This document shows positions 5,937-54,608 of a DNA stretch of 64,000 nt, in pieces. Where the stretch lies: the IMG/VR virus record IMGVR_UViG_2823949316_000001, positions 5,531-69,530 of that record, one strand, 5' to 3'. The notes under the pieces were generated by a model. That model saw only the letters and a list, made by a program, of their open reading frames with translations, searched no databases and was not told the DNA's origin. The stretch is from a virus (Duplodnaviria; Heunggongvirae; Uroviricota; Caudoviricetes). A program made the translations under genes and the position numbers. Position 1 is the first letter of the stretch; every line of letters starts with the position of its first letter.

Positions 5937-6167
5937 ATGAAAGAAAGGATTTTGCAGGCGTACCAGAAGATGCGCGCAGCCGCACGTGGCGCCAAGGGCG
6001 TGGCGCCCGAGCTGACCGACAGTGACCTTGCCGCGGCCGACGTCGCCGCCAAGCATCCCGAGCATGTGCTGCGCCAGGCTGTCGTCATGCGCGCCGCATT
6101 CGAGCGCGAGGCGCTGAAGAACCCGCCGAAGACTGTCGGCCTCGACCTTCCGGTGGTGCCAGCATGA
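5937..6167 (+). CDS. Hypothetical protein (76 aa, MKERILQAYQKMRAAARG...)
   Basis: In-frame ATG inside ORF 5751..6167, after the terminator and with a GGGAC RBS. Stop overlaps the next start (ATGA). Confidence 0.45.
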   Translation: MKERILQAYQKMRAAARGAKGVAPELTDSDLAAADVAAKHPEHVLRQAVVMRAAFEREALKNPPKTVGLDLPVVPA

Positions 6168-6616
6168 GCGATCAAAAACCGACCAACCCCAAGGACATCA
6201 TCGGCAGCACCAAGCTGCCGCTCCACCTCTGGCCAACCACGGCGACCGCCATGGGCTGCATCGGCCTGCTCGAGGGCATGCTGAAGTACGGCCGCCAGAA
6301 CTGGCGCGAGGCAGGCGTGCGCGCGTCGATCTACGTCGATGCCTGCAAGCGCCACCTGGACGCCTGGTTCGAGGGCGAGGAGTGCGCGCCGGACAGCGGC
6401 TCGCCGCACCTGGCCAACGCCATCGCCTGCCTGGCCATCATTATCGACGCCAAGGCTGCCGGCAAGCTGGTGGATGATCGCGCCTACAACGGCGAGGGCT
6501 ATCGCAAGCTCGTCGAGGAGCTGACGCCGCAGGTGGCGCACCTGCAGGAGCTGTTCAAGGACAAGACCCCGCACCACTACACCATCGCCGACAAGGATGC
6601 CGCCAGTGGCCAGTGA
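6164..6616 (+). CDS. Hypothetical phage protein (150 aa); resembles dATP/dGTP diphosphohydrolase N-terminal domain proteins
   Basis: ORF-track protein, ATGA-coupled to the upstream gene. The motif LPLHLWP...KYGRQNWREAG is recalled from phage DUF proteins; the functional assignment is weak. Confidence 0.5.
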   Translation: MSDQKPTNPKDIIGSTKLPLHLWPTTATAMGCIGLLEGMLKYGRQNWREAGVRASIYVDACKRHLDAWFEGEECAPDSGSPHLANAIACLAIIIDAKAAGKLVDDRAYNGEGYRKLVEELTPQVAHLQELFKDKTPHHYTIADKDAASGQ

Positions 6617-20762: not shown

Positions 20763-21043
20763 GGATCGCCTACAGCGCAGTATGCCGCGGCTACGCCAAG
20801 ACCGACCACACCGCCACCGCGGCGAAGAGCAAGGCCACCGGCAAGATCCGCGGCAATGCCCCGCTGATGACCGACGAGCAGATCCTGGAATGCCGGGCGC
20901 TCGACCAGTTCGCTGGCTGGGGCACCGAGCAGCTGCAGCGCCGCTACGGCGTCGACGCGGCCATGATTCAGCGCGTGCTGTCGGGCATCACCCGCTCGCG
21001 CCTGGTGGCCACCCGCAAGCACCTTCCAGCGGTGGCAGCATGA
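20759..21043 (+). CDS. Hypothetical protein (94 aa)
   Basis: ATGA-coupled ORF-track protein. Confidence 0.45.
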   Translation: MRIAYSAVCRGYAKTDHTATAAKSKATGKIRGNAPLMTDEQILECRALDQFAGWGTEQLQRRYGVDAAMIQRVLSGITRSRLVATRKHLPAVAA

Positions 21044-21171
21044 GCGCCGGGCAGTTTGTGGCGCTCTGCGCTGGCGTGTGGGTTCTGGCGGCGCTCGGCC
21101 TGCTCGCGTTCTTCCATGCTGCCACGCGCAATGACCCGGCCAGCATCATCGACGAGGAGGATGCCCTGTGA
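21040..21171 (+). CDS. Small membrane protein (43 aa, MSAGQFVALCAGVWVLAALGLLAFF...)
   Basis: ATGA overlap with the upstream stop. Single TM helix. Below the ORF-track size cutoff. Confidence 0.35.
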   Translation: MSAGQFVALCAGVWVLAALGLLAFFHAATRNDPASIIDEEDAL

Positions 21172-21566
21172 ACATCCAGCAACGCACCGAGGAGCGCTGG
21201 GGCATGCCGTTCTGGGATCTGGTCGGCGACTTCGCTGACCAGGGCCTGACCCGCAAGGACACGGCACGGGCGCTGGGCGTCGACTACTGCAACTTCCAGA
21301 AGAAGCTCGCTGACAACCCAAACAGTGACCCGTTCGATGCCTCGAACGTGGTCGCGCGCTACGTCGCCGAGACCGGCGAGCCGTTCCGTGATGCGGTGAT
21401 CAGGCTGGCCAAGACGCACACGGCCCAGGCCGCTGCGCTCGCGATCGGCTACTCGCACCGCAACCCATTCCTGCACGCCCTGCGCGCTCGCGGCATCGAG
21501 GTGCAGTTCCAGCGCCGCACGGCGCCAGATGCCCTTCACCAACTCTACGGAGATCACTCGAAATGA
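21168..21566 (+). CDS. Hypothetical HTH-containing protein (132 aa)
   Basis: GTGA-coupled. ...LTRKDTARALGVDYCNFQKKL... is HTH-like. Confidence 0.45.
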   Translation: MNIQQRTEERWGMPFWDLVGDFADQGLTRKDTARALGVDYCNFQKKLADNPNSDPFDASNVVARYVAETGEPFRDAVIRLAKTHTAQAAALAIGYSHRNPFLHALRARGIEVQFQRRTAPDALHQLYGDHSK

Positions 21567-21736
21567 ACGAGAACTACACCCACACGGAGCTCGTCGAGCT
21601 CGCAGCCATCCAGAAGCGCGCCGAGAAGCGCCTGCGCAAGTCTGTCCGCAAGCTGATCCGCGCCGACCTGCAGCGCCGGGCGATCACCGGCGAGCCGTCG
21701 CAGTTCAAGCGCGCTGCCTACGGCGCCCAGCTGTGA
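21563..21736 (+). CDS. Hypothetical small basic protein (57 aa)
   Basis: ATGA-coupled. MNENYTHTELVELAAIQKRAEKRLRK... Confidence 0.35.
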   Translation: MNENYTHTELVELAAIQKRAEKRLRKSVRKLIRADLQRRAITGEPSQFKRAAYGAQL

Positions 21737-21963
21737 GCAAGACCGCTCAGCGCCGGCGATCGGCCTACCAGAACGGCTATCGCGTGGGTCGCTACGGCTG
21801 GCCCGAAGGCGTGAAGAGCTACCGCGTGGGCGTGATCGGCGATGCAGCCTACGAGCGTGGCCTGCGCGATGGCCGCAAAGACCGCCGCGCCGCCCAGGAT
21901 CTGGGGCAGTCCATGCCGCGCCGCGTGCTCGCCTGGCTCAGCGGCCTGATGACCAAGCCCTGA
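21733..21963 (+). CDS. Second Rmf/CrpP-like small protein (76 aa; ...SAYQNGYRVGRYGWPEG...)
   Basis: GTGA-coupled. It is the 3' in-frame part of ORF 21529..21963. Confidence 0.4.
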   Translation: MSKTAQRRRSAYQNGYRVGRYGWPEGVKSYRVGVIGDAAYERGLRDGRKDRRAAQDLGQSMPRRVLAWLSGLMTKP

Positions 21964-22030
21964 CTAGCAATCTGGTGCTCTGGGTCGCCGGCCCCAGGGA
22001 ATACGCCACTTCCAGCCGGTATAAACCATC

Positions 22031-22051
22031 ATCGGGCGCCATTAGGGCGCC
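22031..22051 (+). repeat. TTCGGGCGC-N5-GGGCGC family motif, copy 2 (ATCGGGCGCCATTAGGGCGCC), fused to the ACAAGGGGAAAGGAAATG cassette
   Basis: Immediately upstream of the ACP gene. Confidence 0.55.
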
Positions 22052-22066
22052 ACAAGGGGAAAGGAA

Positions 22067-22309
22067 ATGGGCAAGACCGTAGAGCAGCGCGTCATCGAGA
22101 TCGTCGAGCAGCAGCTGGGCCTGGGCGGCAATGAGCCAGTGACCGCCGAGCAGCACATCCTGAACGACCTGGGCGGCGATAGCCTCGACTTCATCGAGAT
22201 TGTCATGGCCATCGAGGAGGAGTTCGAGATCGAGATCAGTGACGACGCCGCCGAAGGTGCGCAGACCGTTCAAGAAGCCATCGATCTGGTCAAGCGCCTG
22301 GTCGACTGA
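22067..22309 (+). CDS. Acyl carrier protein-like (80 aa; DSL phosphopantetheine-attachment motif LGGDSLDFIE)
   Basis: Acidic 4-helix-sized protein with Ser in the DSL motif. Preceded by motif copy 2 and a strong RBS, followed by a GGCGCC-TGCG-GGCGCC hairpin. Confidence 0.7.
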   Translation: MGKTVEQRVIEIVEQQLGLGGNEPVTAEQHILNDLGGDSLDFIEIVMAIEEEFEIEISDDAAEGAQTVQEAIDLVKRLVD

Positions 22310-22355
22310 TCACCACCACGGCGCCTGCGGGCGCCAACCTACCGAGGAAAGGAAA

Positions 22356-22781
22356 TTGAAACCACGTATCTTCGCGTACCTGTTCTTCATCGCCGTCATG
22401 TCCATGCTCATTGGCTCGGTGCGGCTCGACAGCCCAGGCCTGGCAAACATGGCCGCCGTCAGCCTTTGGGCGTTCTCCGCGCTCGGCATCTTCGGGGGTG
22501 TGATGGCCGCCGTAATGGGGCTCGGCGTCACGCACGCCACCGGCGAAGCGCGCGACAAGATCATTGCGCAAGCGCGCGACCTGATCGGAAAGACCACCTA
22601 CGGCCCTGTTCGCAAGACCATCTCCTGGCTGATGACGCTCGCCATCGTGCTGATGTCCGCATACGTCGGCTTGATCGCCACCGCGGTCATGTACTGCCTG
22701 GCGGTAGCTGCGACCCAGTTTGGCAAAGCCATGATCAAGTCAGCCTTGGCCGACTACGACGCCGAGGCATCCGCCGCCTAA
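22356..22781 (+). CDS. Integral membrane protein (141 aa, 4 predicted TM segments), TTG start
   Basis: TTG at 22356 after the hairpin + GAGGAAAGGAAATTG cassette. In-frame part of ORF 22200..22781. Confidence 0.5.
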   Translation: MKPRIFAYLFFIAVMSMLIGSVRLDSPGLANMAAVSLWAFSALGIFGGVMAAVMGLGVTHATGEARDKIIAQARDLIGKTTYGPVRKTISWLMTLAIVLMSAYVGLIATAVMYCLAVAATQFGKAMIKSALADYDAEASAA

Positions 22782-22822
22782 CCACCCCGCGCCACGGACG
22801 GCGCACCTATCGAGAATTGAGC

Positions 22823-23107
22823 ATGAACCTCGAAGACCACCGCAACCCCAACGGCACCTACGACGGCGTTGGCGTGATGGCTGAGCTGACCAGCCTACCG
22901 CGCGACGAGATTCGCGCGATCGCCGAGCAGGTGAAGGCGAACAGCGCGAAGCTGCGCGCCTGTCCTTGGCACGAGTTCGAGCAGCTGATCACCGCCCCGC
23001 CCGGCAATGGCAAGTACCGCTGCCGGCACTGCCAGGGTGAGGTCAGCGCGAGCGCCTACCACTGGCACCAGCAGGGGCGCCGGCCGATGCCGGTGGGCGA
23101 GCCATGA
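22823..23107 (+). CDS. Zinc-ribbon-containing hypothetical protein (94 aa)
   Basis: In-frame ATG in ORF 22466..23107. ...CPWHEF...CRHCQG... Confidence 0.45.
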   Translation: MNLEDHRNPNGTYDGVGVMAELTSLPRDEIRAIAEQVKANSAKLRACPWHEFEQLITAPPGNGKYRCRHCQGEVSASAYHWHQQGRRPMPVGEP

Positions 23108-23265
23108 GCGGCTGGACGATGATCGGCTTCGTGCTGATCGCCCACCACATTGGTCGGCCAGAGCTCGGCCTGGGCGCGTTCCTGATCTGGTGCCTGGTCG
23201 ATACGCCACGCCAGCGCTGCGAGAAGCTGGAGAAGCGGATTGCGGAGCTGGAGGGCAGACCGTGA
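23104..23265 (+). CDS. Small membrane protein (53 aa)
   Basis: ATGA-coupled. MSGWTMIGFVLIAHHIGRPELGLGAFLIWCLV... Confidence 0.35.
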   Translation: MSGWTMIGFVLIAHHIGRPELGLGAFLIWCLVDTPRQRCEKLEKRIAELEGRP

Positions 23266-23510
23266 GCAGGTCAATTACCGGAAGCAAAGGCCCAGGCTAC
23301 GACTTCTGGTCGCGCAGGCCATTCAGCGGTCGAGGGCATGGCGCGGTGGTCAAGCACTTCTGCCACAAGGCGGAGCGGCAGCAGGGTCGCCGCGCACCTG
23401 CCCAAGCGTTGCGCGCGGAGCACAAAGCCGATGCGGCTGACGATGCATTTGAGGTATGGGAGTGCGATCAGATTGATCGGCTTTACGGGCTTCGCGAACT
23501 ACAACCCTGA
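23262..23510 (+). CDS. Hypothetical protein (82 aa)
   Basis: GTGA-coupled. In-frame 3' part of ORF 23007..23510. Confidence 0.4.
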   Translation: MSRSITGSKGPGYDFWSRRPFSGRGHGAVVKHFCHKAERQQGRRAPAQALRAEHKADAADDAFEVWECDQIDRLYGLRELQP

Positions 23511-23576
23511 TACACCATCAGGGCATCAACGCTCGCCACGCCAGACGCTGCAAGGGCTGGCGAGCACACCGCACAC

Positions 23577-23600
23577 CTTCGGGCGCCATTCGGGCGCACC
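23577..23600 (+). repeat. TTCGGGCGC-N5-GGGCGC family motif, copy 3 (CTTCGGGCGCCATTCGGGCGCACC)
   Basis: Intergenic, upstream of the HTH protein / ParB-MTase pair. Confidence 0.5.
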
Positions 23601-23736
23601 AGCCCCGCAGCAAGGCACCTTTCGTCGTGACGGCACACTGGCGCCATCGCAACCGCCAGATGATGCAAGTGTGACCGACGACTCCTTCCACCACCGACTG
23701 GGCGATGCCCGGGCCATCTACGAAGGCACCCATGGC

Positions 23737-24189
23737 ATGACCATGGCGGAGCTGACCGAGGTGACCGGCATCCCGTCGCGCGTGCTCGCCGCGCAAAAGC
23801 GTGCAGAGGGCTGGGCCAAGGTGGTCAAGTCCGGCCAAACCGAAGAGGCCGCAGAGGCGGTGATCCGCTTCAACGAGTGGAAGATGCAGGTCGCCGAGGT
23901 CAACGCCCGCGATGGCGAGGCCATGCCGAACCTGGCCGTGCCCCTGCACGAGGACGCCGTGCACAAGCTGCTCGAGCGCCACAAGGCCGAACTGATCGCG
24001 CCGCGCGTCCTGTCGCAGGAGGCGATCAAGATCCGGCACAGCGACCCGAACATGGCGTTCCAGAAGGCGAAGCTGGCCAAGATCACGGCCGAGACGCTGG
24101 ACATCCTGCATCGGGCCGAGCGCCGGGCCTTTGGCGTGAAGGACGACGAGAAGCCGGGCGGCGGCGTGGTGGTGGTGGAGCGGACATGA
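23737..24189 (+). CDS. HTH DNA-binding protein (about 150 aa); possibly a small-terminase-like or regulatory protein
   Basis: ATG 23737 (alternative in-frame GTG at 23671) in ORF 23338..24189. N-terminal ...MAELTEVTGIPSRVLAAQKRAEGW... Stop overlaps the ParB-MTase start (ATGA). Confidence 0.4.
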   Translation: MTMAELTEVTGIPSRVLAAQKRAEGWAKVVKSGQTEEAAEAVIRFNEWKMQVAEVNARDGEAMPNLAVPLHEDAVHKLLERHKAELIAPRVLSQEAIKIRHSDPNMAFQKAKLAKITAETLDILHRAERRAFGVKDDEKPGGGVVVVERT

Positions 24190-25694
24190 GCGACCTGAGC
24201 AAGATGATGGGCCTCGACCCGGACGTGCCGCAGATCAAACTGCGCCCGCTCGACAGCCTGGTGGCCTACGCCCGCAACAGCCGCACGCACTCGCCGGCCC
24301 AGGTCGAGCAGCTGCAGGCCCTCCTGCTGGAATACGGCTGGACGAACAGCGTCCTGATCGACGACATGGGCATCGTCGCCGGGCACGGGCGCTGCATGGC
24401 CGCTGAGGCGATCTACAAGCGCGGCGAGCAGATCAAGTTCCCGAATGGCACGCCGATCCCGATCGGCATGGTGCCGACCATGGACGTCACCGGCTGGAGC
24501 GCGCAGCAGCGCCGGGCGTACATCATCGCCGACAACCGCTCCGCCCTGTCCGCGGGCTGGGACGACGAAATGCTGAAGCTGGAGCTGGCCGAGCTGAAGG
24601 AAGCCGACTTCGACCTGTCGCTGACCGCCTTCGACGAGGACGAGCTGGCGGCGCTGCTGGCGCCGGAGATCGAGCTGCCCGAAGACAAGGATCCGGACGC
24701 AGCACCTGCAGCACCCGATGAGCCCGTCAGCGTGCCGGGCGACGTGTGGGTGATGGGCGCGCACCGGCTGTGCGTCGGTGATGCCACCAGCGTCGATGCC
24801 TGGGATCGCCTGCTGGGCACCGAGCAGGTCGATATCGTCTGGACAGATCCACCCTACAACGTCGACCAGGGCCGCAAGAACCGCGAGCAGGACAAGTGGG
24901 ACGGCGGCAACCGCGCGGACACGGGCGCGATCGCCAACGACAAGATGTCGCCGGCCGAGTTTTCCGAGTTCCTGCAGACCACCTTCGCCACCCTGTTCGG
25001 CGTGATGAAGCCAGGGGCGCCGATCTACGTGGCGCACTCCGACCTCGAGGGCCAGACCTTCCGCAACGCCTTCGCCGACGCCGGCCTGCACCTGCAGTCC
25101 TGCCTGGTCTGGAAGAAAGACCGGATGGTGCTGGGGCGCATGGACTGGCAGAGCATCCACGAGCCGATCCTGTACGGCTGGAAGAAGGGCAGCGCGCACC
25201 GCTGGTACGGCGGCCGCAAGAACACCAGCGTGATCGACCTGGGCGACGGCTCGCCGTTCACCCGCATGGAGGATGGCCGGTACCAGGTGCGCATCGGCGA
25301 GAGCGTGCTGGTGGTGTCGGCGGATGCCATGGTCGAGCAGCATCCGTCGTCGATGTTGTTCGAGCCCAAGCCGGCGAGCAGTGGCCTGCATCCGACGCAG
25401 AAGCCCGTTGCCCTTGTCGAGCGGATGCTGAAGCAGTCCGCACGTGCCGGCGACCTGGTGGCCGATGCCTTCGGCGGATCCGGCAGCACGCTGATCGCCG
25501 CCGATCGCCTGGGCATGTCGGCACGCCTGATGGAGCTCAGCCCGAAGTTCGCCGACGTGATCGTGCGGCGCTGGGAGCACTACAGCGGGCGCAAGGCGGT
25601 GCACGCGGTGACCGGCGAGGAGTTCCCGGGCGAGGGCGAGGCCCGCGCGCTACCGCCGCAGGTTGATGACCTTGACGACGAAGCGTTGTTCTGA
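24186..25694 (+). CDS. ParB-like nuclease domain fused to beta-class N6A/N4C DNA methyltransferase
   Basis: In-frame ATG (MSDLSKMMGL...) in ORF 23877..25694. ParB-like N-terminus (KLRPLDSLVAYARNSRTHSPAQVEQL). Motif IV VWTDPPYN followed by C-terminal motif I DAFGGSGST. Confidence 0.85.
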   Translation: MSDLSKMMGLDPDVPQIKLRPLDSLVAYARNSRTHSPAQVEQLQALLLEYGWTNSVLIDDMGIVAGHGRCMAAEAIYKRGEQIKFPNGTPIPIGMVPTMDVTGWSAQQRRAYIIADNRSALSAGWDDEMLKLELAELKEADFDLSLTAFDEDELAALLAPEIELPEDKDPDAAPAAPDEPVSVPGDVWVMGAHRLCVGDATSVDAWDRLLGTEQVDIVWTDPPYNVDQGRKNREQDKWDGGNRADTGAIANDKMSPAEFSEFLQTTFATLFGVMKPGAPIYVAHSDLEGQTFRNAFADAGLHLQSCLVWKKDRMVLGRMDWQSIHEPILYGWKKGSAHRWYGGRKNTSVIDLGDGSPFTRMEDGRYQVRIGESVLVVSADAMVEQHPSSMLFEPKPASSGLHPTQKPVALVERMLKQSARAGDLVADAFGGSGSTLIAADRLGMSARLMELSPKFADVIVRRWEHYSGRKAVHAVTGEEFPGEGEARALPPQVDDLDDEALF

Positions 25695-25907: not shown

Positions 25908-26888
25908 GTGGCAGGACTTCCCGCAACCCCCGGCATCGAGATCCAGCATTTCGAAAACGCGGGCATCCGGATATTCACCGGCAAGTACACTGGACAGATA
26001 GACAATTTTACCGTGCCTGAGCACGTCGTGGTTCTGTCGCACTCGGATTACAAGCCGATCAGTTATGCTCCGGTAGAGCGCTGGAAGGTGAACGATGTCT
26101 GCTTCCTCCCCAAGGGATACACGCAGACCGGGCACCTGGCTGAGCTCGCCGAGCTGACTGCTATCAGGATGAGCGACGACCTCTTCACCAAGGTGGCCGA
26201 GGATCACGTCGACCACTCCCGCATCGAATTCCGCTATGCCGACATCACCGGGCCGACGACGCAGTCTCTGTCCGGAGCGCTTCGGCACATGTCCATGACC
26301 GAAGGATTCCGCGAGTGGCCGCTGCTGATCGAGAGCACGGCGATTGCCCTGGCTGTCGCTGCCGTGCGCAAGCTGTCGCCCAAGGCGTCGGTTGCATTCG
26401 ACAAGCAGAGCGAGCTCAGCGCGGCCAGGCGCCGGCGGGTGATGGACTTCATCGACGACAACATCCACCGGCAGATCACCCTGGCTGAGTTGGCAGCAGC
26501 GGCCAACCTGAGCGCCTTCCACTTCGCGCGCCGGTTCAAGGCTGCGACCGGCCAGACGCCGCTGCGGTTCATCGCCGAGCGGCGGGTGGTGGAGGCCAAG
26601 AAGCGCCTGCGTTCAGGGGTGATGCCGCTGGCACAGGTCGCACTGGAATGCGGCTACACCGGCCAGAGCCACTTCACCACAGCGTTCAAGGCCGTTACCG
26701 GCGTCACCCCGGGCATCTACCGCCGGGGAGCTCAGGCGGTGCTGATCGCCGGCCTGCTCTGCTTTTCCCTCATGTACAACGTCGCGACCCAGGCGGGCGC
26801 CATGGATGTCCTGATGGCCGCTATGCATGAGTTCGGCCACGAAGTCGTCGAGTTCGCGGTCGATCTGGATGACTTTCTTGAGCCGTAG
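25908..26888 (+). CDS. AraC/XylS-family transcriptional regulator (326 aa)
   Basis: C-terminal double HTH (...ITLAELAAAANLSAFHFARRFKAATGQTPLRFIAERRVVEAKKRL...ALECGYTGQSHFTTAFKAVTGVTPGIYRR). N-terminal sensor domain. The GTG start at 25908 has no clear SD, so the start is uncertain. Confidence 0.75.
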   Translation: MAGLPATPGIEIQHFENAGIRIFTGKYTGQIDNFTVPEHVVVLSHSDYKPISYAPVERWKVNDVCFLPKGYTQTGHLAELAELTAIRMSDDLFTKVAEDHVDHSRIEFRYADITGPTTQSLSGALRHMSMTEGFREWPLLIESTAIALAVAAVRKLSPKASVAFDKQSELSAARRRRVMDFIDDNIHRQITLAELAAAANLSAFHFARRFKAATGQTPLRFIAERRVVEAKKRLRSGVMPLAQVALECGYTGQSHFTTAFKAVTGVTPGIYRRGAQAVLIAGLLCFSLMYNVATQAGAMDVLMAAMHEFGHEVVEFAVDLDDFLEP

Positions 26889-28872: not shown

Positions 28873-29163
28873 ATGATATCGAGCTTCCGAGATGCCTGGC
28901 TGCATGAGTTCTACGTCAACGGTACCGGGCACCGGCTGATCCCTGGCGCTATGGAAGGGGCTCTGGCCAGGAAGCTGGACATCATCCGCTTCGCCACGAC
29001 CGAGGGCGATCTGCGGGTACCGCCCGGGAACCGGTTCGAGCACCTGCACGGCAAGCTGGCCGCCTACTGCTCGATCCGGGTCAACAAGCAGTACCGCCTG
29101 ATCTTCCGCTGGAACGACGGCAAAGCGAGCGACGTATACCTGGATCCGCACACGTACCGGTGA
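28873..29163 (+). CDS. higB: HigB-like (RelE/ParE superfamily) toxin
   Basis: 96 aa. C-terminal ...RVNKQYRLIFRWNDGKASDVYLDPHTY matches the HigB/killer-protein pattern (..WRITF.F.NGDAY.L.Y.DYH). Confidence 0.7.
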   Translation: MISSFRDAWLHEFYVNGTGHRLIPGAMEGALARKLDIIRFATTEGDLRVPPGNRFEHLHGKLAAYCSIRVNKQYRLIFRWNDGKASDVYLDPHTYR

Positions 29164-29168
29164 GAGAC

Positions 29169-29474
29169 ATGATCGAGACCAACCGCAAGCCCACGACTGT
29201 CGGCGAGATCCTGACCGCCGAGTTCCTGGAGCCGATGGAGCTGACCCAGACCGACCTGGCCCGGGCCATGGGCGTGCAGACGCGCCTGGTCAACGAGCTG
29301 TGCCGCGATCGCCGGGCCGTGACCGCGGACACCGCCCTGATGCTGGCCGGCGTGTTCGGCACGTCGCCTGAATTCTGGCTCAACGCCCAGCAGGCCACCG
29401 ACCTGTGGGAGGCCATGCACGACGAGAAGCGCCGGCAGCGTATTGCCCGGGCGCGGCCGCTGCAGGCTGCCTGA
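29169..29474 (+). CDS. higA: HigA-like XRE-family HTH antitoxin
   Basis: ...ELTQTDLARAMGVQTRLVNELCRDRRAVTADTALMLAGVFGTSPEFWLNAQ... Overlaps the higB stop (GTG at 29160 or ATG at 29169). Confidence 0.7.
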   Translation: MIETNRKPTTVGEILTAEFLEPMELTQTDLARAMGVQTRLVNELCRDRRAVTADTALMLAGVFGTSPEFWLNAQQATDLWEAMHDEKRRQRIARARPLQAA

Positions 29475-31603: not shown

Positions 31604-32470
31604 GTGGAAAGTAACGTTCGCGGTTATGCGGTAAAAGGTCTTGTGGCAGTGGCGGCTCTGCTTCTGTTTGTGGCAGCCATTCTGAGCTTCTACACCGTCG
31701 ACGAGAAGGAACGTGGCGTGGTGCTGCGTAACGGTGCGTTCGTCGAGGTGGCGGATCCCGGCCTGCACTGGAAGATCCCCTTCATTGACACGGTGAAGAC
31801 CATCTCGGTGCAGAACAACGCCAACAACTGGAACGGTCTGCAGGCCTACAGCCGCGACCAGCAAGCCGCATCGCTGGTGGTGTCGGTCAGCTGGCACGTT
31901 CCACCAGGCGAAGTCGCTGCCGTGTACCGTGGCTACGGCGACCTGGAAGGTCTGCTGGCCCGAGCCATTGCCCGCCACGTGCCGACCCAGGTCGAGAACG
32001 TGTTCGGCCAGTACACCGCCGTCAACGCTGTGCAGCAGCGCGGCAAGCTCGTCACGGACATTGCTTCGGCGATCAAGGGCGCCATTACCGGCCCAGTGGT
32101 GATCGACAGCGTCCAGGTCGAGAACATCGACTTCAGTGATGCCTACGAGAAGTCGATCGAAGAGCGCATGCGGGCCGAAGTCGCCGTGAAAACCCGCGAG
32201 CAACAGCTGGCCACCGAGCAGATCCAGGCGCAGATCGTGGTCACCCAGGCCCAGGCCACGGCTGACTCAGCGCTCGCTGCCTCCCGTGCCAAGGCTGAAG
32301 GTATCGCGCTGCTGGGTGCCGCGGAAGCCGAGGCGATCAAGGCTCGTGCTCAGGCCCTGGGCAGCAACCCGGAGCTGGTGGAGCTGACCAAGGCAGAGCG
32401 TTGGAACGGTGCCCTGCCTTCGACCATGCTGCCGAACCAGGCGCTGCCGTTCATCGAAGCCAAGAAGTAA
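31604..32470 (+). CDS. SPFH/Band-7 (prohibitin/HflK/C-like) membrane protein, GTG start
   Basis: N-terminal TM helix, then ...VDEKERGVVLRNGAFVEVADPGLHWKIPFIDTV... and a long Ala/Glu/Gln-rich coiled coil. Start GTG 31604 after GAGGAAAGGAAT. Confidence 0.75.
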   Translation: MESNVRGYAVKGLVAVAALLLFVAAILSFYTVDEKERGVVLRNGAFVEVADPGLHWKIPFIDTVKTISVQNNANNWNGLQAYSRDQQAASLVVSVSWHVPPGEVAAVYRGYGDLEGLLARAIARHVPTQVENVFGQYTAVNAVQQRGKLVTDIASAIKGAITGPVVIDSVQVENIDFSDAYEKSIEERMRAEVAVKTREQQLATEQIQAQIVVTQAQATADSALAASRAKAEGIALLGAAEAEAIKARAQALGSNPELVELTKAERWNGALPSTMLPNQALPFIEAKK

Positions 32471-38285: not shown

Positions 38286-41200
38286 ATGACCACTATCGTG
38301 CCCACGTCTATGCATCGCCAAGTCCTGCTGATCAAAGCCCAGGGTGATTTCAAGCACTCTGGAAAATACTTCCTGCAGAACGGGCGGTGGCATAAATTGC
38401 ACCCGGACAAGCCGGCGCCGAAGGGCGCGCCAGTGGCGGCCCACCCGAAGGCCGCCGGTAACCACGCGCCTGTGGCGCACTTCACCGACGACGAGTGGCA
38501 GAAGCTCAAGCTGCCAGCCGAGAACAGCAACGCCGGCACCTTCAACAAGCAGCTCGAACAGCTCAAGCAGCTGAGCGACGCCGGCGACGTGACCGGCATC
38601 CTCGGCATGCAGCTCGGCACGAATACCTACGGAAAAAAGCTCTCGACGATCGCCAACCACCTGCTCGGCCTGCACGGCAGCGAGCACAAGGTCGCGCCCG
38701 GGCAGAAGGCTGGCGAGCATGCGGCTGTGCAGCAGGCGCCGGCTGAGCACAGCGCAGCGTCACCGGCCACCGAGCCCAAGGCGGAGGAGAAGCCAGCCGC
38801 CCCGGCCGAGAAGCCAGCGGCGAGCAAGCCTGACGCCATCGCCAAGTTCCAGGCCTCGCATGCGAAGCAAGGCACACCATCGACAACGGTCGATGGCAAA
38901 GACTGGTTCGTGGTCGGCACTGGCACCACCAATGACGAAGGCAAGGTCTACGCGCACCTGGCGAGCAAGACCGAAGGCCAGGTTCAGAAAAACGGCTTCG
39001 TACCGAAACAGATGGCCGACTGGATCGACCCGGCGACGATCAGCGACCCGAAGAAGACGGCAGCTGCTGCAGCATCGAAGGCGACCGGCTTGCCCATGCC
39101 CGCCTTCGTGGAAGGCAAGACCACCACTGGGGTGGTCAGCTACTACGAGGCCCAGGCCCAGAAAATCCTCGACATGGCCGCCGCCGGCGACGTGGAAGGC
39201 CTGGCGGCCATGAAGGAAGACGGCCTGAAGCCGAACAGCAAAGGCAAGGTCAGCAACACCTTCAAGGGCAAGACCGAGAACAGCAAAACGCTGCTGGCGC
39301 TGCATGCGCAGGCGGTCGTGCATGCCAAGGGTGGCGCCACCGCGGAACAGCCGGCACCAGCGGCCGAGGCCAGCACCCCTGCGCCGGCCGAGCCTTCGCC
39401 GGCCGAGAAAGTGAAGCAGGCCACGCAGGCAGCCACCGCTGCCGTGGCGCAGACGCCAGAGCACCAGGAGGCGGTCGCGATCGCCACTGCCAGCCTGGCC
39501 GGCTCGAAGGTCTCCCAGATCCCGTGGGACAGCCAGCTGCTGCCGGACAGCAACAAGAACGCAAAGAGCCACAACAAGCAGGTCGCGAAGATCCAGGCGA
39601 TGGCCGAGGCCGGTGACCTGGCTGGGCTGGAGGCGCTGAAATTCGGCACCAACACCTACGGCAAGAAGCAGGAGAAGCTGAAGCAGCTGGCGATCGCCGC
39701 GCTGCAGGAGGACGCCGCAGCGCCTGTACCTGCTGCCGCACCTGCGCCTGCCGAGAAGAAGGGCTACGACAAGTACGGCATCTTCGACAGCCTCACGAGC
39801 GACATCGACACTGCCGCCAGCGGCGGCGATGCGTCCACGCTGAAGGACATCGAATCCTACCTGAATACGCCGGCCCACAAGAACGAGCCCGGGCTGGACG
39901 CGATCAAAAAATATCTGGATAGGGCAAAGGCGTCCGTGGCGACACCGGCGGCTCCTGCCGCAGAGCAAGGCCCCAAGGAAGGCGACACCAAGCAAGGCGC
40001 CGATGGCATGCTCGTGTTCAAGGACGGCCGCTGGCACAAGCAGGCCGAGCCGGCAGCAGCCGCTCCTGAGCCTGCCCCAGCCCATCCGATCGACGCAGTC
40101 CCGATGCCGGAGCTCACCTTCTCGAGCGCCGCCAGCAACGCGAAGGTGGCGGCCGCCCTGGAGAAGCTGAAGGAACAGATCAAGGCGGAAGGGCCTGGCG
40201 CGCTCAAGGGCGTAACCAAGCACATGAAGAGCAAGGGCAAGTACATCGTCAGCCTGCCCGGCACATACGGCAGCCTGAAGGTGTACGGCTACGAGCACGC
40301 GCCCGACCATGCTGGCACCAAGGTGCACGCCTACATCGAGGCACTGAAAGCTGCAGCAGGCAAGCCCAGCAAGGCCCCCGCGAAAGCCAAGGCCAAAAAT
40401 CCTGTCGTTGACGCCGATGGCATCCAGTCCATGGACAGCTGGAAGAAGACCGGGGAGCAGGCCGGCTCGAACCCAGGCGGCAAGTTCAAGGACGAGAACG
40501 GCGTCGAGTGGTACTGCAAATTCCCGTCCGACGAGGATGTCGCCAAGTCCGAGGTGCTGGCCGCGAAGCTCTACGCTGTCGCCGGCGTGATCGGCCAGGA
40601 CGCGAAGCTGATCAAGAAGGACGGCAAGCTGGGCATCGCTTCCCGCTGGACGACCGTGAGCAAGGCTGCGCCAAAGGATCTGGCCAAGGCCGCGGGCGCG
40701 CAGTCCGGGTTCGCCGTCGACGCGTGGCTCGCGAACTGGGACGTCGTCGGCATGGGCTTCGACAACCTGCAGGTCGGGCCGGATGGCAAGGCCGTCCGCG
40801 TCGATGCCGGCGGCTCACTCACCTACCGCGCCCAGGGCGGCAAGAAGGCGTTCGGCGCCACCGTCGCCGAGATCGACAGCATGCGCGACGCGAAGGTCAA
40901 CGCCCAGTCGGCGGCCGTGTTCGGCAGCATGACCCAGGCCGACCTGACGGCATCCGTGGCGAAGGTGGCGGCGATCCCTGATTCCGCCATCAAGAACCTG
41001 GTGGAGCTGCACGGCCCAGGCGATGCGGCAGAGCGCAAGGCGCTGGCTGACACTCTGATCGCCCGCAAGAACGACCTGATCGCCAAGTATCCCAAGGCTG
41101 CCAAGACGCCGAAAAAGCGCCTTGACCCGAACAGCCTGCCGGTCGATCCGGATCGCCTGCCGAAGGCGCACGACTTCAACAACTGGCTGGGCGCCGGCAA

Positions 41201-42173
41201 GCCTCTGTCGTCGCAGCCGCACGTCAACGCCGCGAACATGGCGGTTGAGCAGGAGCTGCTGGCGCTCGCCAAGACCGGCAACCTGACCAAGCTGAAAGAC
41301 TTCCAGTTCCACGCCATCGACAAGGCCACGGGCAACCAGACCGGCCAGCTGATCCCGATCGCCGAGCATCCGTCAAAGCACGTCGTTCAGCTGCACGCCG
41401 ACCTGGTGATGGCCCTGGACGAGATCGCCAACCCGCCGCAGCCCCTGAAGGTCTTCCAGGAGACCGACGTCGGCACGATCGACCAGCTGGCCGCGGCGCT
41501 GCCGTCGAAGAAGTTCGGCACCACCGTCACCTCGGTGCACTCGAACGAGAAGCTGGGCTTCTGGGTGGTGCTGGGCACGGCGCACGGCGCAGCGAAGTTC
41601 AAACCGTCCAAGGTGATGGACTATTCGAGCGCGGCGATCGCGGCGGCGAAAGAGAAGTTCCAGCAGGCCAGCCACCTGGCCAAGCACTTCATCTACTCGG
41701 TGCAGGCATCCGGCAGCTACAACGACCTGTTCCGCGCCGGCAAGTCGCACGATCACGCCGGCAACAAGCTGTCGGACGTGGCCAAGGCCGCGCTCGAGCA
41801 CGCGACCACCATGCCGGAAGGCACCAGCTTGTACCGCTGGCAGTCGATACCTGACGACATGGTGAAGAAGATCCTGGACGCGCCGGACGGCACTGTCTTC
41901 CAGGCCACCGGCCCTATGTGCACCTCGTACCACCCAACCGGTACGGCAGGGTTCGGCAAGCACCGCGTGACCGTGCGCTACGCCAATGGCGCCAAGGCGG
42001 TAGAGAGCTTCGCATCCGGGAAGTTTTCCGGTGAAAAAGAGGTGACCACGCTGCCGAACTCGCGCTTCGTGATCCTCAAGAAGGAGATGGTGCCTGACGT
42101 CGAGCACGGGAACCCGGGCGGCAAGCGCCTGGAGCTGGAGGTGCTGATGTTACCTCCCGATATGGGCCTGTGA
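38286..42173 (+). CDS. 1295-aa polyvalent protein: N-terminal tandem repeats (GTNTYGKK-type), Ala/Pro-rich linkers, central atypical-kinase-like domain, C-terminal R-S-ExE mono-ADP-ribosyltransferase-like domain
   Basis: Uninterrupted 3.9-kb ORF. About 45-aa repeats ...AGDVTGILGMQLGTNTYGKK... / ...AGDLAGLEALKFGTNTYGKK..., plus degenerate copies. Kinase-like motifs GSNPGGKFKDENGVEWYCKF (Gly-rich loop + Lys), DAWLANWD (D-x4-N), VRVDAGG (DFG-like). C-terminal LYRW (Arg), CTSY (STS-like), SGEKEV (ExE) at ART-typical spacings. Confidence 0.8.
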   Translation: MTTIVPTSMHRQVLLIKAQGDFKHSGKYFLQNGRWHKLHPDKPAPKGAPVAAHPKAAGNHAPVAHFTDDEWQKLKLPAENSNAGTFNKQLEQLKQLSDAGDVTGILGMQLGTNTYGKKLSTIANHLLGLHGSEHKVAPGQKAGEHAAVQQAPAEHSAASPATEPKAEEKPAAPAEKPAASKPDAIAKFQASHAKQGTPSTTVDGKDWFVVGTGTTNDEGKVYAHLASKTEGQVQKNGFVPKQMADWIDPATISDPKKTAAAAASKATGLPMPAFVEGKTTTGVVSYYEAQAQKILDMAAAGDVEGLAAMKEDGLKPNSKGKVSNTFKGKTENSKTLLALHAQAVVHAKGGATAEQPAPAAEASTPAPAEPSPAEKVKQATQAATAAVAQTPEHQEAVAIATASLAGSKVSQIPWDSQLLPDSNKNAKSHNKQVAKIQAMAEAGDLAGLEALKFGTNTYGKKQEKLKQLAIAALQEDAAAPVPAAAPAPAEKKGYDKYGIFDSLTSDIDTAASGGDASTLKDIESYLNTPAHKNEPGLDAIKKYLDRAKASVATPAAPAAEQGPKEGDTKQGADGMLVFKDGRWHKQAEPAAAAPEPAPAHPIDAVPMPELTFSSAASNAKVAAALEKLKEQIKAEGPGALKGVTKHMKSKGKYIVSLPGTYGSLKVYGYEHAPDHAGTKVHAYIEALKAAAGKPSKAPAKAKAKNPVVDADGIQSMDSWKKTGEQAGSNPGGKFKDENGVEWYCKFPSDEDVAKSEVLAAKLYAVAGVIGQDAKLIKKDGKLGIASRWTTVSKAAPKDLAKAAGAQSGFAVDAWLANWDVVGMGFDNLQVGPDGKAVRVDAGGSLTYRAQGGKKAFGATVAEIDSMRDAKVNAQSAAVFGSMTQADLTASVAKVAAIPDSAIKNLVELHGPGDAAERKALADTLIARKNDLIAKYPKAAKTPKKRLDPNSLPVDPDRLPKAHDFNNWLGAGKPLSSQPHVNAANMAVEQELLALAKTGNLTKLKDFQFHAIDKATGNQTGQLIPIAEHPSKHVVQLHADLVMALDEIANPPQPLKVFQETDVGTIDQLAAALPSKKFGTTVTSVHSNEKLGFWVVLGTAHGAAKFKPSKVMDYSSAAIAAAKEKFQQASHLAKHFIYSVQASGSYNDLFRAGKSHDHAGNKLSDVAKAALEHATTMPEGTSLYRWQSIPDDMVKKILDAPDGTVFQATGPMCTSYHPTGTAGFGKHRVTVRYANGAKAVESFASGKFSGEKEVTTLPNSRFVILKKEMVPDVEHGNPGGKRLELEVLMLPPDMGL

Positions 42174-53928: not shown

Positions 53929-54141
53929 TCAAAGCAGAACGAGCGGCTGCTTCGGCACCAACTGATCAGCCAGCATGCGGCGCAGGATACGCTCATGCGG
54001 TGACTGGCTGACCTGCTCGTTCGCCCAAGCTTCCCAGTCGCTGCGCTTGCCGTACTCGGCGATGATGCGCCCGGCCTCGCCGCGGGCGGCCAGCCAGGTG
54101 TCCAGGCTCTTCTGGCGTTGTTGAGCGATGAGGGTCATCAA
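53929..54141 (-). CDS. Hypothetical protein (70 aa)
   Basis: ATGA-coupled to the MazG-like gene. Confidence 0.4.
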   Translation of the reverse strand: MMTLIAQQRQKSLDTWLAARGEAGRIIAEYGKRSDWEAWANEQVSQSPHERILRRMLADQLVPKQPLVLL

Positions 54142-54608
54142 TAGGCCTTCCCGCCGGCCAGCTGCCGGGTTTCCAGCTTGTGATCGGCGCGACGCTGGTT
54201 GTAGGCCAGCTTCTCGATGGCAGCGCTGGTAATGTCGAGCTCGAGGAAGCCACCCAGGTCAAGAATGCGGATCAAGGCGTCCGCCAGCTCAACCTCGATC
54301 ATCTGACGGTGAGGCAGGTGGTCGTCCATCAGCTTTTTGCGATCGCCTTCCATCGCCTCGCTGATTTCCGAGTGGATCAGGCACAGTTTCTCGGCGACGT
54401 TGACCTGCTCCAGGGTCTTGCGCTCCCCAGTCGCTTTGTCAGTCCACCAGCCGCTGAGGCAGGCCAGCGAGTGGCAGAGATCCTGAAGGATATCCAGGCC
54501 CTCGACCGCGCGCTCAATGCCACGGGTATGTTGGATGCCGCCGATGTATGGAGTGGTCGCCATGATGGCTTCGAGTTCTTGTGCTGCCTGGTTGAGTGGA
54601 GTGGTCAC
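54138..54608 (-). CDS. MazG-like nucleoside-triphosphate pyrophosphohydrolase (156 aa)
   Basis: ...EISEAMEG... and ...EVELADALIRILDLG... helices typical of all-alpha NTP-PPase (MazG) proteins. Confidence 0.6.
   Translation of the reverse strand: MTTPLNQAAQELEAIMATTPYIGGIQHTRGIERAVEGLDILQDLCHSLACLSGWWTDKATGERKTLEQVNVAEKLCLIHSEISEAMEGDRKKLMDDHLPHRQMIEVELADALIRILDLGGFLELDITSAAIEKLAYNQRRADHKLETRQLAGGKAY

Follow-up and report, generated by a model that had tools for sequence, protein, structure and literature searches.

The acyl carrier protein (ACP) gene described here and the membrane protein gene that follows it appear, judged from related phage loci, to behave as separate cassettes with conserved intergenic boundaries in an early accessory operon, and their pairing is not conserved in the loci compared. 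We see about an even chance that the ACP is a stand-alone AcpP-type cassette of this operon, that is, an auxiliary or host-takeover gene which sustains or redirects host acyl metabolism, with the LysA-like membrane protein as a separate element.

The window, by which we mean the whole analysed stretch of 64,000 nucleotides, is phage over its entire 64 kb, with replication genes on the left and terminase, portal, protease and capsid genes on the right. Its source is a large (>64 kb) Microvirga lupini prophage. The ACP is therefore phage-borne, as the preliminary description of this DNA had stated, and the reading of a host gene beside a prophage was ruled out. A rightward operon starts at approximately 17.8 kb, and the ACP gene lies about 4 kb into it. 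The features around the ACP gene are the following.

21733-21963, + strand: 76-aa gene, the conserved left neighbour of a variable slot (59% identical to the 76-aa gene of the related locus L111)
22034-22051, + strand: motif copy GGGCGCCATTAGGGCGCC, GGGCGC-N3-TA-GGGCGC, at the head of the cassette group (from the motif count)
22058-22068, + strand: consensus RBS plus start 11-mer GGAAAGGAAAT of the ACP gene (from the copy count)
22067-22309, + strand: ACP gene, AcpP-type, 80 aa, from the ATG at 22067 to the stop at 22309 (family profiles, PDB matches, model)
22181-22183, + strand: codon of Ser39, the predicted phosphopantetheine-attachment residue of the ACP (DSL motif)
22320-22335, + strand: intergenic hairpin hp1, GGCGCC-TGCG-GGCGCC, with the RBS 11-mer next at 22346-22356
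22356-22781, + strand: P2 LysA-family membrane protein, 141 aa, TTG start, four TM helices (profiles, AF2)
22789-22804, + strand: intergenic hairpin hp2, GCGCC-ACGGAC-GGCGC, followed by CTATCGAGA
22823-23107, + strand: 94-aa Cys-rich (zinc-ribbon-like) protein of the next cassette (phrog_9844, 5.7e-10)
23104-23265, + strand: 53-aa small membrane/coiled-coil protein, TM53 (homologues in the related loci L002 and L009)
24186-25694, + strand: N6/N4 DNA methyltransferase, the conserved right anchor of the accessory region (Pfam N6_N4_Mtase, 2.1e-24)

The translation of the ACP gene starts with MGKTVEQRV and contains the LGGDSLDFIE motif. With a GC3 of 0.85 the gene has a value typical for real genes in this window of 63% GC, and its product is very acidic (pI 4.05; 20 acidic versus 4 basic residues among the 80 aa). 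The curated cut-offs are exceeded for Pfam PP-binding (PF00550; 7.6e-14, 52.2 bits compared to 20.8), TIGR00517 (79.6 bits compared to 70.45) and NF002148 (81.6 bits compared to 71), so that the 80-aa ACP which the preliminary description had read from the letters is borne out. The best PHROG match is phrog_5934 “acyl carrier protein” (3e-20), and AcpP chains of the PDB were matched down to 9e-18.

The residues D38-S39-L40 align with D35-S36-L37 of the AcpP of E. coli and P. putida. In the AF2 model (four/five helices, pLDDT 72) the helix 42-53 begins directly after DSL, with Ser39 at the N-terminus of helix II. This “recognition helix” (DSLD-IE-VMAIEEEFEIEISD) is almost identical to that of housekeeping AcpP. 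A Foldseek search of the PDB with the model returned bacterial AcpP chains in 19 of the 20 top matches (TM 0.62-0.70, probability 1.0), the remaining one being a mitochondrial ACP in an Fe-S cluster assembly complex; the structure-prediction check for a non-ACP fold that had been proposed earlier thus led to AcpP structures. By sequence and predicted fold the protein is a bona fide, mainstream AcpP-like ACP. Among its five closest relatives the residues D38, S39, L40, D41, E44, M47, E50, E52 and F53 are invariant, and this invariance of the hallmark residues argues for purifying selection and for a gene that is kept in phages.

The second gene, annotated earlier as a TTG-initiated polytopic membrane protein of 141 aa, also stood up to comparison. 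All 31 members of its family have M as first residue, in most cases followed by K, and their alignment starts at residue 1, which supports the TTG start; the closest relative has a GTG start behind an identical RBS. The AF2 model (pLDDT 96.1) consists of four long hydrophobic helices (3-23, 27-60, 84-103 and 107-140) and a short connecting one (63-80). By profile comparison the product of 22356-22781 is a member of the phage P2 LysA family: the 31-member alignment matches P2 LysA in hhalign with a probability of 96.9% (E 2e-10, 130 columns), 26 of the 31 members match phrog_162 (best 5.9e-15), P2 LysA itself matches the family HMM at 7.9e-11, and precomputed PF28015 LysA matches are on record. 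The single sequence from the window gives only a weak match (1.4e-4) and pairwise BLASTP against P2 LysA gives nothing, i.e. the relationship is visible only by profile methods.

An enzymatic role of this protein, namely as an acyltransferase, had been raised for checking. No acyltransferase family was found in Pfam at E<=1, NCBIfam returned only one uncharacterised family below its cut-off, and the PDB fold search with the model gave no match with E<0.8; in the viral fold comparison, small uncharacterised membrane proteins of phages came out best. Only W38, Y103 and G105 are nearly invariant in the family. With its 141 aa, its four TM helices and a family that conserves no polar catalytic motif, the protein is unlikely to be an enzyme.

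The expression signals were described correctly in part. The motif copy and the strong RBS ahead of the ACP gene as well as the GC hairpin after it are present. The 15-nt motif GGGCGCNNNTAGGGC has nine matches in the window, all on the + strand (0.86 expected), and most copies come after terminator-like hairpins. The 11-mer GGAAAGGAAAT occurs at 22058 and 22346 and has eight copies in the window, located at gene starts, compared to 0.45 expected. The bracket of promoter and terminator, which had been proposed as well, found no support: a scan of 21000-24000 revealed neither a sigma-70-like promoter nor an intrinsic terminator on the + strand, and the bracketing elements were ruled out as such signals. 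Both hairpins are without a U-tract and fold with ordinary energies (z of -1.6 for hp1 and -1.2 for hp2); as it has no U-tract, hp1 is not a canonical terminator. An Rfam search of the entire window yielded no RNA family. The own flanking sigma-70 promoter and intrinsic terminator that characterise a moron are thus not found at the ACP-LysA-like unit, which instead carries a motif common to eight other phage gene groups. This argues for expression as part of the phage programme and against autonomous lysogenic expression.

The comparison with related phages covers a few short metagenomic contigs of one phage lineage, and within these the two genes assort independently: the ACP-LysA-like pairing occurs in one of four ACP loci of the lineage and in one of six independent LysA-like loci. 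At least three other contigs of the lineage carry ACP homologues (57-63% identity) with phage-type boundary sequences and RBS. The gene order is Acb2/Tad1 - ACP - Zn52 - TM53 in L009, with no LysA-like gene, and P198 - ACP - X168 in L008. The ACP of L009 is 58% identical to that of the window and lies directly after the Acb2/Tad1 gene (2.3e-14). On the side of the membrane protein the orders are Acb2/Tad1 - LysA-like in L029 (PF24729, 9.5e-17), Tad2-like - LysA-like in L027/L028 (PF11195, 2.6e-25), P175 - LysA-like in L111, where P175 is a 175-aa protein without a known family, and TM57 - LysA-like in L002, where TM57 is a small TM protein. Relatives of the LysA-like gene that neighbour a Tad2-like or Acb2/Tad1 gene are start/stop-coupled to it. 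The variable slot occupied by the ACP in the window therefore holds known anti-defence genes in L027/L028 and L029.

The boundary sequences are conserved irrespective of the genes they flank. The motif GGGCGC-N3-TA-GGGCGC also heads the equivalent cassettes in L002, L008, L027/L028, L029 and L111; in L029 it stands directly before the Acb2/Tad1 gene, and in L027 it is separated from Tad2 by a 54-aa gene. The element of hp1 plus RBS also precedes the ACP gene of L009, and elements near-identical to hp2 occur in L009, L111 and L002, where the genes beside them differ. The neighbouring genes are distributed in a similar manner. In L111 the 76-aa gene precedes a matching intergenic region plus motif, homologues of the 94-aa Cys-rich protein come after the LysA-like gene in L029 and L111, and homologues of TM53 precede the LysA-like gene in L002 and follow the ACP gene in L009. 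The methyltransferase of the window is 60% identical to a methylase at the equivalent position in L027. The 76-aa protein has no match in Pfam, PHROG or NCBIfam, and no informative family match was obtained for it or for the other cassette neighbours P175/P198, X168 and TM53.

Searches beyond these loci added few homologues. Megablast of 21000-24000 against 50,697 phage records gave no match, nor did tblastn of the membrane protein, and tblastn of the ACP reached one jumbo phage only (the BCSR5 ACP). A word-index homologue search yielded only 10 ACP and 2 membrane-protein matches; the LysA-like family of about 30 members was recovered by an exhaustive representative search. Locus searches with the membrane protein or the alignments in viral and genome collections gave no related loci, where for one of the peptide patterns the non-ATG start is the probable reason, and ACP queries of genome and metagenome collections were dominated by housekeeping acpP genes, with no lineage-specific loci. 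Neither an ACP nor a LysA-like gene was present in 80 viral contigs anchored on the methyltransferase or in 64 anchored on the hp2 17-mer; the latter matches were dismissed as chance.

We favor, at the even chance given above, the reading of a stand-alone ACP cassette with a metabolic role. The cassette would be self-contained within the rightward early operon, and each cassette of this region comes with an RBS and conserved boundaries. Host AcpS would convert the apo-ACP to holo-ACP, and the latter could engage ACP-dependent enzymes of the host, i.e. those of type II fatty-acid synthesis and of the lipid A, phospholipid, lipoate and biotin branches. Acting early, the ACP might thereby sustain or redirect the acyl-group metabolism of the host during phage development. 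The LysA-like protein would act separately in the inner membrane, in lysis timing or another membrane function, and would be neither acceptor nor partner of the ACP. We also note two points that speak against a metabolic role: the phage is without a cognate enzyme that would define a pathway, and the slot, occupied in relatives by counter-defence genes, agrees no less with a role outside metabolism. Families of fab genes, acyltransferases and ligases are absent from the precomputed Pfam record of +/-10 kb around the ACP and from the genes scanned elsewhere in the window, and a weak check with two query sequences detected no phosphopantetheinyl transferase (PPTase) in the window.

The idea with which the locus was originally presented, that acyl groups pass from the ACP to or through the membrane protein and that lipid, LPS or envelope is modified as lysogenic conversion, draws on the arrangement of the two genes, which follow one another on one strand with a gap of 46 nt and have identical strong RBSs. 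Against it stand the separation of the two genes in three of four ACP and five of six LysA-like loci, the assignment of the membrane protein to the P2 LysA family, the lack of an acyltransferase family, of a significant PDB fold match and of a conserved polar catalytic motif in this protein, and the absence of a sigma-70 promoter or terminator that would mark a moron, next to a motif common to other phage gene groups. By these comparative data the idea is largely refuted, and we consider it highly improbable. Interference with the fatty-acid metabolism of the host, named earlier as an alternative, may still apply. It is also improbable, although to a lesser degree, that the phage recently picked up a bacterial acpP by illegitimate recombination and that the ACP is a neutral passenger without a phage role. 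Hundreds of bacterial AcpP genes are 48-58% identical to the phage ACP; this mainstream AcpP-like character, with an identity of about 50-58% to AcpP from many phyla, and the lack of partner genes speak for a passenger. However, its homologues recur in the lineage within phage-type boundaries, the hallmarks are invariant across them, and it is closer to the AcpP of Pseudomonas (52% identity, 67 bits) than to that of Brucella (39%, 54 bits). Being nearer to Pseudomonas than to this alphaproteobacterial AcpP argues against a recent capture from the present host.

A further explanation, somewhat unlikely in our view, is that the ACP serves as a counter-defence or host-takeover effector: an AcpP mimic might bind or titrate an AcpP-docking host protein, or replace an AcpP inactivated by defence, and would for this reason be found in an anti-defence island. 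The position before the LysA-like gene, taken by Tad2-like in L027/L028 and by Acb2/Tad1 in L029, points in this direction, as do the motif at the head of Acb2/Tad1 in L029, the ACP following Acb2/Tad1 in L009, and a YAcAr SLOG-domain gene in the stretch of L027 that holds the Tad2-like gene. The DNA methyltransferases of the operon, commonly anti-restriction, the extreme acidity of the ACP and the lack of an enzymatic partner in the phage are consistent with it. While this is suggestive, it is guilt by position in approximately five short contigs of one lineage, and plain metabolic genes also occur in accessory regions. No Tad or Acb gene was recognised in the window, where the methyltransferases are the only anti-defence genes recognised; a pure decoy would not need the full catalytic hallmarks of an ACP; and the literature searched gave no link between ACPs and anti-defence, nor a description of an ACP as anti-defence protein. 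A bolder version appears doubtful to us, though not as improbable as a neutral passenger: the AcpP mimic might represent a novel class of proteins for counter-defence or host takeover, from the slot of the Tad2 or Acb2/Tad1 sponges, that neutralises an ACP-dependent or ACP-targeting immunity or stress pathway of the host, and the LysA-like proteins might shield the membrane from pore-forming abortive-infection effectors instead of timing the phage's own lysis.

Phage ACPs have been annotated in many genomes without a demonstrated function, and the present case leaves that unchanged. It does remove an attractive but unsupported story, in which the ACP would supply a membrane acyltransferase for lysogenic conversion, and it illustrates cleanly how genes are exchanged as cassettes in the early operon of large alphaproteobacterial prophages, here of a poorly sampled lineage. 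The one new lead is positional: in relatives, Thoeris and CBASS sponge genes are found in the slot used by ACP and LysA-like genes. If true, this would be the first functional assignment for phage ACPs and for early-operon LysA homologues.

Phage-encoded ACPs (PHROG 5934 / 4154) are likewise small, stand-alone and located in phage genomes; examples are ORF32 of Erythrobacter phage vB_EliS-R6L, the ACP of Burkholderia jumbo phage BCSR5 and acpP of Rhodobacteraceae prophages. They have been annotated repeatedly, with an unclear function (PMC5463345), and acpP was reported in eight Rhodobacteraceae prophages (PMC8224337). In some roseobacter prophages acpP has fabG/fabF companions, and flavobacterial jumbo phages possess a multi-gene “host-interface island”; the ACP of the window has neither. 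It belongs to a temperate-type element of a rhizobial genus, in a slot used by Tad2 and Acb2/Tad1 in relatives. Phage anti-defence islands (Tad1/Tad2/Acb2 sponges, anti-restriction methylases) resemble the region as a variable early stretch in which small genes are interchanged between conserved anchors, whereas the window has no recognised anti-defence gene except the methyltransferases.

P2 LysA, a proposed antiholin (PF28015, PHROG 162), has the same length and four TM helices as the LysA-like protein and a full-length profile similarity to it. It is nonessential and affects lysis timing, and four TMDs were reported (PMC3091744). The LysA-like gene of the window belongs to the early accessory operon and has the head genes more than 25 kb downstream; it is not part of a holin-endolysin-spanin cassette, and neither its surroundings nor the rest of the window contained a recognised lysis gene. 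Its relatives, too, sit in early or nin-type regions, among them the nin region of a lambdoid prophage.

Compared to housekeeping AcpP (TIGR00517; E. coli AcpP 1L0H/1ACP; P. putida 7PDI), the phage ACP has the same length, acidity, helix layout and DSL serine, exceeds the equivalog cut-off and possesses a nearly identical helix II. The housekeeping acpP is part of a fabD-fabG-acpP-fabF cluster, whereas the phage gene lies among small phage genes of an early operon without fab genes. Loop I of the phage ACP contains a one-residue insertion, and the residue after DSLD, Thr39 in E. coli AcpP, is Phe in the phage protein and varies among its phage relatives.

The two genes under study were confirmed as the preliminary description had drawn them, namely an 80-aa protein read from ATG 22067 to the stop at 22309 and a TTG-initiated hydrophobic protein of 141 aa read from 22356 to the stop at 22781. 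The gene caller placed the second start at ATG 22398 (127 aa). As all 31 of 31 members of the family begin with Met, mostly Met-Lys, and align from residue 1, and as the closest relative has a GTG start behind the same ribosome binding site (RBS), TTG 22356 is the supported start. The motif copy upstream of the acyl carrier protein (ACP) gene and the strong RBS described earlier were likewise found. The 11-mer GGAAAGGAAAT (RBS and start codon) lies in front of both genes and occurs in eight copies at gene starts on both strands compared to 0.45 expected; the pattern GGGCGCNNNTAGGGC has nine matches in the window, all on the + strand, compared to 0.86 expected.

Features of the window
22034-22051, + strand: motif copy GGGCGCCATTAGGGCGCC, upstream of the ACP gene
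22067-22309, + strand: ACP gene
22320-22335: hairpin hp1, between both genes
22356-22781, + strand: gene of the 141-aa membrane protein (LysA-like)
22789-22804: hairpin hp2, 3' of the LysA-like gene
18938, 22034, 23581, 25781, 28803, 31503, 34308, 38047, 48160, + strand: motif copies
14035, 14685, 22058, 22346, 34336, 37262, 53788, 58297: copies of the 11-mer
Left end: AAA ATPase, PDDEXK nuclease, helicase, SSB, MazZ-like diphosphohydrolase domain protein, primase
Middle: three DNA methyltransferases, AraC regulator, HigB/HTH pair, SPFH protein, several strong PHROG families
Right end: large terminase, portal, protease, major head protein

The 15-nt motif GGGCGC-N3-TA-GGGC lies mostly just 3' of terminator-like hairpins, heading gene groups including the terminase group, and is kept at equivalent places in the related contigs L002, L008, L027-L029 and L111. 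We regard it as a candidate promoter or regulator site specific to the phage, with a GG-N10-GC spacing which we take to be that of sigma-54 -24/-12 elements. The proposed bracketing of the unit by promoter and terminator was not confirmed, as a consensus scan of the + strand from 21000 to 24000 detected no sigma-70-type promoter and no intrinsic terminator. Neither hairpin has a U-tract, and Rfam gave no match in the window.

The entire window (63% GC) lies inside a phage element, and a 92.6-kb Logan contig carries the same DNA. The ACP is 100% identical to the NCBI protein 'acyl carrier protein [Microvirga lupini]' from a 1.44-Mb contig of an isolate genome; the label 'temperate' is used because this sequence, and by inference the element, is on record there. 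No integrase or recognised repressor was found within the window. Leftward genes stop near 17.2 kb and rightward genes begin at 17.8 kb. The ACP gene, about 4 kb into the long rightward operon and far from the head genes, is part of this operon behind the phage-wide motif, and its expression is predicted there.

The identification of the 80-aa protein as a phage ACP stands. It passes the curated cut-offs of Pfam PP-binding, TIGR00517 and NF002148, and PHROG 5934 ('acyl carrier protein') is matched at 3e-20. Over its whole length it can be aligned to AcpP chains of solved structure, and D38-S39-L40 then falls on the canonical DSL. The helices expected of an ACP are present in an AlphaFold model built from the single sequence (pLDDT 72), and all but one of the model's best 20 Foldseek matches in the PDB are bacterial AcpP chains (TM 0.62-0.70). 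The protein is strongly acidic (pI 4.05; 20 acidic and 4 basic residues). Helix II of E. coli ACP is the surface recognised by AcpS and the FAS enzymes; this helix is almost unaltered in the phage protein, and all five of the closest relatives retain D38, S39, L40, D41, E44, M47, E50, E52 and F53. Genome and metagenome scans gave hundreds of housekeeping acpP genes with 48-58% identity, and judged by its sequence the ACP is a mainstream AcpP-like protein. Pseudomonas AcpP is nearer to it than an alphaproteobacterial AcpP is, so that it was probably not captured recently from the present host. Phage ACPs have been noted repeatedly, with function unknown (PMC5463345; PMC13573597), are also carried by alphaproteobacterial prophages (PMC8224337) and are already catalogued as PHROG 5934 and 4154, so the ACP of the window joins a known kind.

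The window was compared to the few related contigs found, all of which come from Logan, ENA or JGI assemblies and share clear protein-level synteny with it.

Gene order around the ACP and LysA-like genes (Zn, Cys-rich zinc-ribbon-like protein; TM, small membrane protein; P175, P198, X168, no informative family match; numbers, length in aa)
Window: 76 aa, motif, ACP, hp1, LysA-like, hp2, Zn94, TM53, and further on a methylase
L111: 76 aa (59% identity), motif, P175, hp2-like, LysA-like, 76 aa, Zn106
L029: motif, Acb2/Tad1, LysA-like, Zn94-like
L027/L028: motif, 54 aa, Tad2-like, LysA-like (overlapping start), 174 aa, methylase (60% identity), and further on AraC; YAcAr SLOG gene upstream
L002: TM57, motif, LysA-like, X168
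L009: Acb2/Tad1 (71% identity to that of L029), hp1, ACP (58% identity), hp2, Zn52, TM53
L008: motif, P198, ACP, X168
L007: 173 aa, ACP

The ACP and LysA-like genes are independent cassettes whose pairing is not conserved, and the ACP has no fixed link to the membrane protein downstream; the LysA-like gene follows the ACP at one of four ACP loci, and one of six independent LysA-like loci has an ACP before it. The intergenic elements, i.e. the motif, hp1 (GGCGCC-N4-GGCGCC) with the RBS, and hp2 (GCGCC-ACGGAC-GGCGC) with CTATCGAGA, are kept whichever genes they separate (window 22310-22355, 22782-22822; L009 324-365, 615-657; L111 1943-2003; L002 1451-1490, 575-622), as expected of boundary sequences where cassettes exchange. 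Both hairpin elements resemble boundary or recombination sequences of cassettes. More distant viral contigs with ACPs have unrelated neighbour genes. On an 80-kb viral contig (L004 4984-6369) a 461-aa protein contains an ACP domain, placed between residues about 340 and 425, and on a 358-kb jumbo-phage contig (L003 5761-7011) an ACP gene precedes a spanin-like pair (N-terminal TM protein, then lipoprotein).

As a single sequence, the LysA-like protein gave weak full-length matches to phrog_162 (1.4e-4), NF038378 and, precomputed, PF28015 LysA, and BLASTP against P2 LysA gave no match. An exhaustive HMMER search yielded 30 representatives of the family, which range from 124 to 181 aa and align over their full length. 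The family profile aligns with P2 LysA over 130 columns (96.9% probability, E 2e-10), P2 LysA matches the family HMM at 7.9e-11, and 26 of the 31 members match phrog_162 (best 5.9e-15). On these profile matches the 141-aa protein is assigned to the P2 LysA family, as a divergent member in an atypical position. AlphaFold with the family alignment (pLDDT 96.1) gave four long hydrophobic helices and one short connecting helix; its best fold matches among viral proteins were small, uncharacterised membrane proteins of phages. P2 LysA is nonessential, influences lysis timing and is considered a four-TM antiholin (P2 record; PMC3091744). Whereas P2 lysA sits in a lysis cassette, the LysA-like gene of the window does not; the window has no recognised lysis gene, the relatives likewise lie in early regions, and the subfamily belongs to early operons and not to lysis cassettes. 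In related phages, Tad2-like or Acb2/Tad1 genes have a stop codon that is overlapped or abutted by the LysA-family gene (L027 5396-6426; L029 1160-1902), and a lambdoid prophage (L257 5001-5423) carries a LysA-family gene in its nin region, with the replication genes (Rep O, DnaB) on one side and NinB on the other.

Delivery of acyl groups from the ACP to this membrane protein, as first suggested, is highly improbable in view of the LysA-family identity and the pairing at one in four ACP and one in six LysA-like loci; the membrane protein matched no acyltransferase family and no PDB fold. We rather propose, with about an even chance of being right, that host AcpS would convert the ACP to its holo form, which would plug into host ACP-dependent enzymes, and that acyl metabolism would be sustained or redirected during phage development. 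A weak check with two query sequences detected no PPTase in the window, and no fab, ligase or acyltransferase domains are on record within +/-10 kb of the ACP. The ACP is an intact AcpP-type protein under purifying selection in the phage lineage, and we consider it quite unlikely to be a neutral passenger.

The main rival is that the ACP acts as a mimic for counter-defence or takeover, which is possible but rather doubtful. In three independent relatives, anti-Thoeris/anti-CBASS sponge families scoring above Pfam cut-offs adjoin the ACP or LysA-like gene; in two of them the sponge gene directly precedes the LysA-like gene, i.e. takes the position of the ACP in the window, and in the third an ACP comes directly after it. 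The methyltransferases share the operon with the ACP. This evidence is solely positional, and no link between ACPs and anti-defence was found in the literature searched. While the identities of the ACP and the LysA-like protein would hold little surprise for a specialist, this positional link is the sole element that might open a new direction.

Further genes of the element deserve mention. A protein with a MazZ-like dATP/dGTP diphosphohydrolase N-terminal domain (6164-6616; PF18909, 4.5e-23) and a MazG-like pyrophosphatase (54138-54608; phrog_5658, 1.5e-61) may have to do with the metabolism of modified nucleotides; the window showed no PurZ-like gene. The three methyltransferase genes in this one phage (24186-25694, 29573-30787, 44597-46246) comprise two of N6/N4 type and a third coding for a 549-aa DUF4942 protein (phrog_6263, 731 bits). 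The AraC-family regulator (25908-26888), the HigB-like toxin with HTH_3 antitoxin (28873-29474) and the SPFH/Band 7 protein (31604-32470) of the rightward operon each have the motif at the head of their group. Mid-operon and 3' of a motif copy, a 1295-aa ORF (38286-42173) has good coding statistics and no Pfam or PHROG match. The called 252-aa gene at 23431-24189 contains the motif copy at 23581, and its L027 homologue has 174 aa and aligns with the C-terminal part only; the true start is probably near 23660.
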